Assembly (NCBI RefSeq): GCF_041248615.1
Contig: NZ_CP158426.1
DNA length: 64,000 nucleotides
Reading direction: 5' to 3' (one strand)
Source: Escherichia coli
GTDB taxonomy: Bacteria > Pseudomonadota > Gammaproteobacteria > Enterobacterales > Enterobacteriaceae
The notes under the pieces are model-generated. The model worked only from the letters and a program-made list of their open reading frames with translations. It searched no databases and had not been told where the DNA came from. The position numbers and the translations under genes were made by a program. Below are positions 7,929-9,595 of this stretch, in pieces (the stretch's first letter is position 1; each line of letters starts with the position of its first letter).

Positions 7929-8615
7929 GTGAAAACACTGGCAGAACGATTAAAGATAGGTAGAGAGAAAGCTGGCATGAGCCAAGCTCAACTAGCTGAA
8001 AAAATTGGACTTTCACAACAATCTGTAGCCAAAATAGAGAATGGCGAAACTCTACAACCGCGCAAAATTAAAGAAATTGCAAAAGTTTTAGGTGTATCAC
8101 AAAAGTGGTTACAACTTGGTATTGAAGACAACGCATCCATACCTGATCTTGTTGTAAAAGAAGCAGAAAGCACCGCATTAGACCCCGATATTTTCGTAAA
8201 CATTCCTGTTTTAGATGTCGAGTTATCGGCAGGTAACGGATGTCTGGCTGAAATAGTTGAATCAGCTATTGACTGGTTTCCGTTAAGAAGAGCAGATTTG
8301 AGAAAATCTGGCGTATGTGCATCTAATGCCAAGATCGTACAAATATGGGGGAACAGTTTATTACCGGTTCTCAATAATGGAGATCTTGTTGCCGTTGATA
8401 TTTCTCAAACCGTTCCTATTCGTGATGGCGATCTTTATGCCGTACGAGATGGTGTATTGCTAAGGGTTAAAATACTTATCAACTTACCTGACGGTGGCTT
8501 GATTCTTAGAAGCTTCAACAAAGATGAGTACCCAGATGAAATACTCACCTTTGAAGATAGACGAGCCAGAATTCATGTTATAGGTAGGGTATTCTGGTCA
8601 TCGCGAACTTGGTAA
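7929..8615 (+). CDS. CI-like prophage repressor (XRE HTH + S24 LexA-type autopeptidase), GTG start
   Basis: 228 aa; N-terminal HTH (MSQAQLAEKIGLSQQSVAKIENGE); C-terminal GNSLLP...K peptidase S24-like Ser/Lys context. Confidence 0.85.
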   Translation: MKTLAERLKIGREKAGMSQAQLAEKIGLSQQSVAKIENGETLQPRKIKEIAKVLGVSQKWLQLGIEDNASIPDLVVKEAESTALDPDIFVNIPVLDVELSAGNGCLAEIVESAIDWFPLRRADLRKSGVCASNAKIVQIWGNSLLPVLNNGDLVAVDISQTVPIRDGDLYAVRDGVLLRVKILINLPDGGLILRSFNKDEYPDEILTFEDRRARIHVIGRVFWSSRTW

Positions 8616-9488
8616 TGCATCGAAAAGCATTTCTTCAGAAATAATTTTAAGTTTTGCACCATTATCATCCCTATAAGATATAGCCTTTTCGATCTTCCTT
8701 CCGTGACTAGAGAATTTCCAATCACGGGAGGAAAGCGTCCCAATTACTAAAAAATCCAACTTTTGAGTAATTCCACTACTGATGTTCCCACCAGCATTTT
8801 TAATCAAATTTTCAACTACGGCTCTCTTTCCTGCAACAAAAGTGCCTGTAAGACAATAGGTTTTACCCTCTAACTCTATCGAAGCCCCTACATCAATAGG
8901 CAGCCTGGTCGCCAAACCATCCACCACCCCACTTTCCAAGTCACATCCTGTGAAGTCTACTAATGCCTTATGTAGAGTTAAACTCTCATCTTCAGTAATA
9001 ACACCATCTTTAAGAATTTCCTTTACAAGTGCATAAAGTTTTTTTCCTGGGTAGTTGTTCTTCAAAGCTCCATTTTGCTCAAGCCACCAATTAAGATATC
9101 TTATTTCTTCTTGAGTTAAGTTCCGATCAGCAATTAATCCTTTACATAGTCCATTAAGTAAATGGACATCTACATCCTTGGAGTAAAAATCAATTTCAGG
9201 GATATCAAGAATTTCCCTCTGTATTTGGAGAAGACTATTTTTAAGGTCATCACGTTCTTCTGATGTGATTATTCCATCCGCAAGAATATCCGACACCCGT
9301 GCAGATAGACTTTTTATAACTCCATTATTGATAATCTGCTTTGCTTCAAGTAACCATGTATCTAAGTAAAGAACCTCCTCTTCACGGACAACTCCATCTG
9401 CAATGATTCCATCAATGATGCTAATCAAGTTAGCAAATAACTTGTCCCGGTTCTGTGTGTAATTAAAAGCGTAAAGCGCGTCTTCCAT
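8598..9488 (-). CDS. repeat-containing protein with C-terminal BRCT domain (296 aa from ATG 9488, GGAGG SD)
   Basis: four ~40-aa repeats with ADG(V/I)ITxEE motif, then EGKTYCLTGTFVAGKRAVVENLIKNAGGNISSGITQKLDFLVIG resembling the LigA-type BRCT fold. Confidence 0.55.
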   Translation of the reverse strand: MEDALYAFNYTQNRDKLFANLISIIDGIIADGVVREEEVLYLDTWLLEAKQIINNGVIKSLSARVSDILADGIITSEERDDLKNSLLQIQREILDIPEIDFYSKDVDVHLLNGLCKGLIADRNLTQEEIRYLNWWLEQNGALKNNYPGKKLYALVKEILKDGVITEDESLTLHKALVDFTGCDLESGVVDGLATRLPIDVGASIELEGKTYCLTGTFVAGKRAVVENLIKNAGGNISSGITQKLDFLVIGTLSSRDWKFSSHGRKIEKAISYRDDNGAKLKIISEEMLFDALPSSR

Positions 9489-9545
9489 ACAACCTCCTTT
9501 TTTTGATAATCCTTGCACTCCTTGGCTACTCGTTCAAACCACATA

Positions 9546-9595
9546 AAGTTGTTGACAACATTCAAAACCACAACTAAATTACAACTTAAAGGTGT
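9546..9595 (+). promoter_or_regulatory. second operator/promoter region (OL-like): -35 TTGACA (9552..9557), 17 bp, -10 TAAATT (9575..9580) overlapped by the same heptamer repeats
   Basis: AAGTTGT 9546, ACAACAT 9555, ACAACTA 9570, ACAACTT 9581, and ACAACTT-AA-AGGTGTT 16-mer shared with the 7860 region. Confidence 0.45.

Follow-up and report, generated by a model that had tools for sequence, protein, structure and literature searches.

The stretch of DNA analysed here, called the window in what follows, comprises 64,000 nucleotides of Escherichia coli (contig NZ_CP158426.1 of RefSeq assembly GCF_041248615.1) and contains a lambdoid prophage inserted beside yjjG/rimI/holD; its sequence is 100% identical to that of isolate NRZ14408 (NZ_LT599825.1). 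The immunity region of this prophage (Table 1) is arranged as a cro-like gene (minus strand), the right operator (OR), cI (plus), a gene encoding a protein with a C-terminal BRCT domain (minus), the left operator and left promoter (OL/PL), and an early-left operon (plus) that runs through yfdP, an IS1, yfdQ and yfdR towards the integrase. The gene between cI and OL, hereafter the BRCT gene, is the subject of this work. In RefSeq, the Prokaryotic Genome Annotation Pipeline (PGAP) gives it the same coordinates and the same start under the product name 'BRCT domain-containing protein', and, as an initial annotation of the window had already stated, its 3′ end runs against that of the CI-like repressor gene with an overlap of 18 bp (8598-8615). 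The analysis presented below places it as a new, inverted member of a known, barely characterised family; the preferred, though by no means certain, interpretation is that of a superinfection-exclusion or defence factor expressed in the lysogen.

Almost the entire protein, from residue 2 to residue 295 of 296, matches PHROG 3989 (E=1.5e-128), and the family extends from Proteobacteria to Firmicutes and Planctomycetes. Relatives number 354 in a collection clustered at 90%, 1596 among the representatives of 50%-identity clusters (E<1e-10) and 891 in the AlphaFold DB (E<=1e-3). Among GenBank phages, the closest relatives are the orf2 genes of Vibrio phage K139 and of its kin Kappa, VcP032, 919TP and VPUSM 8 (32.6% identity, 95% coverage, E=1e-38). 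K139 Orf2 (NP_536630; Nesper et al. 1999, J Bacteriol 181:2902) belongs to the same PHROG, and the two proteins have in common a size of about 300 aa, a succession of two helical domains and a BRCT domain, and a location immediately beside the CI repressor gene. Members of this K139 Orf2/PHROG 3989 family are cytoplasmic proteins carried in the immunity regions of temperate phages. The earlier statement that no phage defence or anti-defence protein of such an architecture was known finds no support, given this family, its K139 homologue and the occurrence of the same module in the candidate defence protein PDC-S48. In K139 the genetic order is PL, cI, orf2, glo and int, with an annotated lysogenic promoter and transcription start. 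In the 1999 abstract of Nesper et al., Orf2 is reportedly said to be 'involved in preventing superinfection', and Glo is described as a periplasmic exclusion protein. K139 Orf2 is also named in a review sentence as a case of superinfection immunity. This phenotype has been reported for K139 only; the literature and libraries searched gave no mechanism, structure or modern defence annotation for the family, and literature searches on BRCT proteins of prophages, defence or superinfection, on TerB combined with BRCT, and on PDC-S48 returned nothing relevant.

The ATG at 9488, and not the GTG at 9518, was taken as the start codon, because the orthologues all open with MEDxxY and diverge upstream of this point; the PGAP start is identical, and in the locus alignment the Serratia and Salmonella orthologues use the same ATG. 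When compared with these two orthologues, synonymous sites are saturated (pS 0.74-0.86) and non-synonymous ones differ at 0.12-0.21 per site, which gives a pN/pS of about 0.16-0.27, so that the BRCT gene is under purifying selection. Together with the 1596 family representatives, this ratio speaks against a pseudogene or a low-complexity artefact. The gene is present in 46 of 5426 complete E. coli genomes, always chromosomal, in single copy and at least 98.3% identical, and most of the related prophages are devoid of it. In one prophage copy from IMG/VR (locus L050, 5001-5889), the reading frame is lost after some 176 codons owing to an insertion of 1 bp, a sign of occasional decay.

An AlphaFold2 model of the 296-aa protein, built with an alignment of 78 sequences, reached a predicted local distance difference test (pLDDT) of 93.8 and a predicted template modelling score (pTM) of 0.91. 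Two helical halves are followed in this model by a beta/alpha domain at residues 205-291, whose beta-alpha-beta-beta-alpha-beta-alpha fold can be superposed on solved BRCT domains: Foldseek places it on the DNA-bound BRCT of RFC1 (2k7f) with an rmsd of 2.1 Å over 88 columns, and also on LigA. At the level of sequence, Pfam PF00533 matches residues 206-290 of the query (E=5.3e-5) and 46 of the 78 relatives at E<=1e-3 (best 4.7e-9), whilst a search of the PDB with the family profile retrieves the RFC1 BRCT at E=2.3e-8 and the LigA BRCTs at about 1e-6. The LigA-type BRCT domain that had been read from the C-terminal residues is confirmed by these results, and the domain appears to be of the RFC1/LigA class. 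BRCT domains of this class bind 5′-phosphorylated DNA ends and nicks. For RFC1, Kobayashi et al. are said to have located the 5′-phosphate-binding positions at T415-G416, R423 and K458; in the E. coli protein, T214-G215 and R222 align to the first three of these positions with HMMER, and T214, G215, R222 and K265 are each conserved in at least 90% of the family alignment. The BRCT domains of RFC1 (2EBU/2K7F) and LigA (1L7B, 2OWO), which are the closest solved relatives by both profile and fold, would share with it the T-G, R and, judging from secondary structure, K positions. Unlike them, the E. coli protein, about 25% identical, carries a 12-residue insert (251-262) with an invariant D256-W257 just before BRCT helix 2, and has none of the catalytic domains of ligases or clamp loaders. 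The suggestion that the protein deals with DNA ends, nicks or host ligase is a reasonable lead in view of this class and of the conserved residues of its putative pocket.

The N-terminal part of the model is made of eight helices, four in the first half (10-28, 36-50, 56-69 and 76-94) and four in the second (104-118, 126-143, 148-158 and 166-180). Four motifs of the form D-G/R-x-[ILV]-[TR]-x-[ED]-E start at residues 31, 71, 121 and 161, and each of them corresponds in the model to a short connector between helices, in which a D-G turn is followed by a T/S-x-x-E helix cap. Both halves, of about 92 aa and with two motifs each, are 31% identical and align over their full length in 50 sequences. 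The motifs behind the four ~40-aa ADG-ITxEE repeats of the initial annotation are real and not a low-complexity artefact, but the repeated unit is a different one: the protein contains two copies of a four-helix domain of about 92 aa, and not four independent units. The proposed resemblance of these repeats to TerB or to the N-terminal domain of DjlA found no support. Pfam TerB (PF05099) matches neither the query at E<=10 nor any of the 78 relatives at E<=0.1, a search of 177,635 PDB sequences with a profile of the repeat domain retrieved no TerB-like chain at E<=10, and hhalign gives probabilities of 3.8% against TerB 2JXU and 1.7% against the TerB alignment, with only the 'DG...E' connector aligned; no likeness to the solved TerB-like structures 2JXU and 2OU3 was found at either profile or fold level. 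'TerB-like' would describe, at most, a shared structural connector, since TerB (PF05099; 2JXU) and the DjlA N-terminal domain have in common with each helical domain a helix-'(A)DG-x-h-x-x-x-E'-helix arrangement, here present twice per domain. The helical domain thus stands as a family without assignment. Two other readings of the repeats were tried and rejected. Profile searches gave weak matches to KChIP/calsenilin (E 0.08-0.5), but an EF-hand reading of the 'D-x-x-x-D-G-x-I-x-x-x-E' motif was discarded because the loop in the model is only 6 residues long and the position-3 ligand is missing. Homology to YmfL and other CII-like proteins was discarded as well, with an hhalign probability of 5% that leaves a likeness at the level of the motif; YmfL, encoded in the same prophage, has a single helix connector of this type, 10 residues long, which accounts for weak cross-matches with the repeats of the BRCT protein.

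The module formed by helical and BRCT domains is also found in larger proteins. In some, it follows an N-terminal DEDDh/RNase_T exonuclease, and such proteins match the PADLOC candidate PDC-S48 (E=2e-30), a protein of about 411 aa made of exonuclease, helical domain and BRCT. The E. coli protein aligns to this model through its helical domain and BRCT only (positions 239-377 of 411, E=2.4e-7) and differs from it in having a second helical domain in place of the exonuclease; no DEDDh domain was found in it, either with Pfam or through the PDC-S48 match, which is confined to the C-terminal part. Other fusions join the module to a 2042-aa helicase-nuclease similar to Hhe/MkoA/PDC-S37, to a DEAD/DEAH helicase or to a LigA-type tail of HhH and BRCT, and still other architectures of the family include extra BRCT domains or N-terminal membrane anchors. 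All the fusion partners act on DNA and several come from conflict systems, which fits a module that finds or holds a DNA feature.

Many database entries name this family 'NAD-dependent DNA ligase'. As a candidate identity, LigA was rejected: the only match is that of the BRCT domain, with 28.5 bits against an NCBIfam cut-off of 444, and Pfam detects in the protein no ligase domain besides BRCT, LigA itself being composed of adenylation, OB-fold, Zn-finger and HhH domains. The ligase names are evidently misannotations. They have nonetheless a bearing on one alternative, in which the protein would be an accessory of phage DNA metabolism, for instance an adaptor bringing host LigA, the clamp or the replisome to phage DNA for integration, excision, replication or the sealing of cos sites. 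That LigA and RFC1 provide the best sequence relatives of the BRCT domain, and that some members are fused to the LigA HhH and BRCT tail or to an exonuclease of the PolIII-epsilon type, would suit such a role as much as the ligase names would if they were correct. However, lambdoid genes for replication and recombination sit in the PL and PR operons, outside the immunity region, and the sparse distribution of the BRCT gene in E. coli and in related prophages fits an accessory moron rather than a core function. We consider this alternative very unlikely.

The genomic context of the homologues speaks more directly to when the gene is expressed. About eight phage lineages have it beside the repressor gene, and in at least seven lineages other than the present one it lies downstream of that gene and in the same direction, usually directly adjacent to it. 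This is the case for a shorter form of about 215 aa, with one helical domain and a BRCT, which directly follows the repressor in Pseudomonas phage phi1 and some 40 related prophages, and for a second Pseudomonas group (L098, L104 and L105), where the gene comes directly after a short repressor that consists of an HTH without an S24 domain. Genes located after S24 repressors occur at loci L010, where they are directly adjacent, and L013, where an integrase follows; at L051 the gene is found two ORFs after cI and at L109 between a repressor-like gene and an integrase; one or two ORFs separate repressor and gene in L013, L051 and L109. Given this placement, the gene would be expressed in the lysogen in these lineages, and usually co-transcribed with the repressor. 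The idea that the gene forms a conserved pair with one for a Glo-like periplasmic protein was also considered and rejected, as K139 Glo and the small secreted ORF that follows the Pseudomonas homologue show no similarity. Whereas orf2 of the P2-like K139 is co-transcribed with cI, the E. coli gene is inverted and convergent, and needs a promoter of its own on the OL side. The same arrangement was observed in every one of more than 40 enterobacterial loci, in which a gene of 70-100% identity is convergent with, and overlaps, an orthologous cI (71-100%), while the replication and PL modules vary.

Across these enterobacterial loci the identity of the BRCT gene goes in step with that of cI (100/100, 83/83, 76/80 and 70/73%), which brings up the possibility of a partnership between both proteins. 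In this alternative, the BRCT domain would sense nicks or gaps and modulate lysogeny or induction, either through repressor stability, through the RecA-dependent cleavage of CI or through the lysis-lysogeny decision. The overlapping 3′ ends of the two genes and the S24 self-cleaving type of most partner repressors are compatible with it, and the 'immunity' effect in K139 could equally stem from a reinforcement of CI. Nevertheless, co-inheritance is expected because the immunity region between OR and OL moves as one block, in which any gene becomes trapped, as happens with rexAB in lambda, and by itself it does not prove a functional coupling with CI. Moreover, the Pseudomonas lineages L098, L104 and L105 pair the gene with a repressor that has no S24 domain, and some family members, joined to nucleases or helicases, are encoded away from phage immunity regions. 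A role as modulator of lysogeny is, in our opinion, unlikely.

The control elements around the gene allow a more specific description. The operators of the prophage are 15-bp palindromes of the form ACAACTT-N-AAGKTGT, which contain the heptamers pointed out in the initial annotation, and the claim that the upstream region of the BRCT gene carries the motifs of the cI/cro operator region was correct, with sites at 9538 and 9581. Within the whole 64 kb, the 15-mer ACAACTTNAAGKTGT occurs with up to 2 mismatches only at 7861, 7885, 9538, 9581 and 10380; with up to 3 mismatches there are 28 matches, compared to 9.4 +/- 3.7 in shuffled sequences. The fifth of these sites (ACAACTTTATGCTGT, 10380-10394, 2 mismatches) lies about 800 bp into the PL operon, inside an ORF that PGAP annotates as frameshifted, and may represent either a distal operator or a match by chance. 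The operator-bearing region upstream of the BRCT gene is OL/PL itself: the operators flank a promoter of the plus strand, with no evident promoter for the BRCT gene. The hexamers of PL (TTGACA at 9552-9557 and TAAATT at 9575-9580) are close to consensus and invariant in the orthologous loci. In an alignment with the Serratia and Salmonella loci, both operators, the PL hexamers and a single element of the minus strand stand out as conserved blocks, and the flanks diverge. This minus-strand element (9537-9509) has the form TTGA(A/T)(C/T), 17-18 nt, TG(C/T)AAGGAT and reads as a weak -35 box followed by an extended -10 box, that is, as a candidate promoter of the BRCT gene. If so, transcription would start near 9502, and the operator at 9552-9538 would cover about -50 to -36, with its centre at -43. 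In lambda, OR2 occupies this position relative to PRM, where CI activates.

A similar layout is seen at the other end of the immunity region, where hand counting in the sequence between 7835 and 7911 gives a candidate PRM on the plus strand (TTGGAA at 7875-7880, 18 nt, TAACCT at 7899-7904) and a candidate PR on the minus strand (TTGTGG at 7864-7859, 18 nt, TATTCT at 7840-7835). The operator at 7861-7875 overlaps the -35 box of the candidate PR and abuts that of the candidate PRM, as lambda OR2 does with its own PR and PRM, and 31 bp lie between the middle of the operator and the first -10 base both at the candidate PRM of cI and at the candidate promoter of the BRCT gene. These weak motifs suggest that CI may switch the BRCT gene on while shutting PL off.

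Such a geometry bears on the position of the gene in the phage cycle, which had been taken as that of a repressor-controlled early gene. According to this alternative, CI bound at OL would silence the gene in the lysogen, and its product would act after induction or infection, either on host ligase, repair or replication or by protecting DNA ends from nucleases such as RecBCD. The presence of two CI-type operators in the 110 bp that precede the start codon is in line with it, a control region shared with the divergent PL is plausible, and a BRCT protein capping DNA ends could shield injected DNA in the manner of Gam-type proteins. On the other hand, the operators bracket PL, and the closer of them stops immediately before the putative -35 box, in a position to activate rather than to occlude; some seven other lineages have the homologue downstream of the repressor, usually directly, in the lysogenic unit; and the K139 homologue has been linked, in the review sentence mentioned above, to superinfection immunity, which is a trait of the lysogen. 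The early position proposed initially is doubtful in the light of these lysogenic lineages and of an operator placed at about -43, where it would be expected to activate, and we judge an early lytic or anti-defence role improbable.

Table 1. Position of the BRCT gene, its encoded domains and the neighbouring control elements and regulators in the window
Feature	Position	Strand	Remarks
BRCT-protein CDS (WP_000389078.1)	8598..9488 (including stop codon)	-	296 aa; PHROG 3989 over full length; under purifying selection
Helical domain 1 (residues ~8-98)	9195..9467	-	Four helices (AlphaFold2); motifs GIIADGVVREEE and ILADGIITSEE
Helical domain 2 (residues ~99-190)	8919..9194	-	Duplicate of domain 1; motifs GLIADRNLTQEE and ILKDGVITEDE
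BRCT domain (residues ~205-291)	8616..8876	-	T214-G215, R222 and K265 conserved; inserted loop with invariant W257
Ribosome-binding site AAGGAGG	9493..9499	-	Strong, by sequence; 4-5 nt before the ATG
Putative promoter of the BRCT gene (prediction)	9509..9537	-	-35 TTGAAC (9537-9532), 17-nt spacer, extended -10 TGcAAGGAT (9517-9509)
OL-type operator ACCACATAAAGTTGT	9538..9552	.	1-bp overlap with the PL -35; directly borders the -35 box predicted for the BRCT gene, with its centre at about -43
PL-like promoter TTGACA-17-TAAATT	9552..9580	+	Transcribes the early-left operon (9713..); oriented away from the BRCT gene
OL-type operator ACAACTTAAAGGTGT	9581..9595	.	Perfect match to consensus; just downstream of the PL -10
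CI-type repressor (HTH_3 and Peptidase_S24)	7929..8615	+	228 aa; 3′ end overlaps that of the convergent BRCT gene by 18 bp
OR operators (7861-7875 and 7885-7899)	7861..7899	.	Separate the cro-like gene from cI; 15-mers of the family seen at OL
Cro-like regulator (YdaS/HTH)	7545..7793	-	Divergent from cI
YmfL, CII-like activator	6965-7522	-	Full length; phrog_101, E=1e-70

Several other observations concern the surroundings of the immunity region. At the beginning of the early-left operon, the ORFs 9713-9988 (plus) and 9906-10151 (minus) overlap by 83 bp on opposite strands, and both are full-length PHROG matches (phrog_3195, E 4e-65, and phrog_3311, E 4e-55, respectively), of which PGAP annotates only the one on the plus strand; if real, the other would be transcribed against PL and toward the BRCT gene. 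The IS1 (11045-11742) interrupts the same operon between yfdP and yfdQ, and an IS1414 is inserted further downstream, so that the prophage may be defective. At the end of the prophage, beside the integrase, a 710-aa protein with a CHAT domain (caspase-like protease) is encoded at about 15879-18011 on the minus strand, by a gene that is a candidate for cargo or defence. Outside the prophage, the ordinary chromosomal context includes three tRNA-Leu(CAG) genes in tandem (22781-23103, plus strand).

With regard to known systems, the slot occupied by the BRCT gene is that of lambda rexAB, between cI and OL/PL, but with the opposite orientation. Lambda RexAB, BstA of the Salmonella prophage BTP1 and Nun of HK022 are all encoded between cI and PL, co-directionally with cI, and are accessory proteins that protect the lysogen, by membrane depolarisation, KilA-N-based abortive infection and transcription termination, respectively, none of which has a BRCT counterpart. 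The BRCT protein would share with them a slot trapped between OR and OL, an accessory distribution and the expected expression in the lysogen, without any likeness in sequence or fold.

The reading that we favour, and to which we give about as much belief as doubt, is that of a superinfection-exclusion or defence factor of the K139 Orf2/PHROG 3989 family, expressed in the lysogen, in which the BRCT domain would recognise phosphorylated ends or nicks of incoming DNA and the helical domains would act as a blocker or adaptor. Homology to PHROG 3989 and K139 Orf2, the position between cI and OL, the apparent class and putative pocket of the BRCT domain, the fusions with effectors of conflict systems and the geometry of the putative promoter all argue for it. 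The proposed pathway would start with a weak promoter of its own beside OL, placed with respect to a CI operator as PRM is to OR2, from which CI may activate the gene while repressing PL. The RFC1/LigA-class BRCT, with its putative T-G...R...K pocket, would then dock on DNA with 5′ phosphates at ends, nicks or gaps; its targets could be replication intermediates, or phage DNA just after injection, with its cohesive ends or the nicks of annealed cos sites. The two four-helix domains would serve as effector or adaptor, by obstructing the access of host ligase or replisome or by recruiting a host factor, while in related proteins the module of helical and BRCT domains would instead deliver the fused DEDDh exonuclease or helicase-nuclease. 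Finally, an induced resident prophage would excise as a closed circle, and a block on the end-joining of injected DNA would spare it.

Some points weigh against the favoured reading. Its support comes from homology and context, and the protein shows no more than 33% identity with K139 Orf2. With respect to cI the gene has the opposite orientation, unlike in all other lineages, and expression in the lysogen would depend on a weak predicted promoter that a scan of the minus strand (9489-9700) with the sigma-70 consensus did not find. The E. coli protein has no catalytic domain and no match to any validated defence family, its sole PADLOC match being weak, partial and to an unvalidated candidate. 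As for the BRCT domain, the equivalence of K265 with RFC1 K458 is proposed from its position at the start of helix 2 ('GRKIEKA' versus 'QSKSDKA') and was not read off the HMMER alignment. Phosphoproteins and other BRCT domains are also among the ligands of BRCT domains, which makes DNA-end binding uncertain. In addition, the evidence for the phenotype is one report, of 1999, on a homologue of 33% identity, whose content is taken here from a review sentence and from the abstract as reported. A more specific version, in which a widespread and so far unrecognised class of prophage defence operates at DNA ends, with a catalytically inert BRCT protein, activated by CI from a PRM-like promoter at OL, that seizes cohesive ends or cos nicks, blocks their sealing by ligase and spares the circular prophage, is unlikely as a whole, its block of cos-end ligation being coherent but speculative.

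A last question is what a defence or superinfection-exclusion role would mean for the family. BRCT domains are rare in bacteria outside LigA, and the members of this family, which amount to about 1600 clusters at 50% identity and some 900 relatives in the AlphaFold DB, are labelled only as 'BRCT domain-containing protein' or, wrongly, as 'NAD-dependent DNA ligase'. If the phenotype of K139 Orf2 generalises, a large family of proteins from prophage immunity regions would have been missed by current defence catalogues. A stand-alone BRCT protein that protects the lysogen would point to a step of defence at DNA ends or nicks, and would explain an observation of 1999 that was never followed up mechanistically. 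Moreover, the fusions with an exonuclease and with helicase-nucleases similar to Hhe and Mokosh suggest that the module may be a reusable adaptor to 'find the foreign DNA end'.

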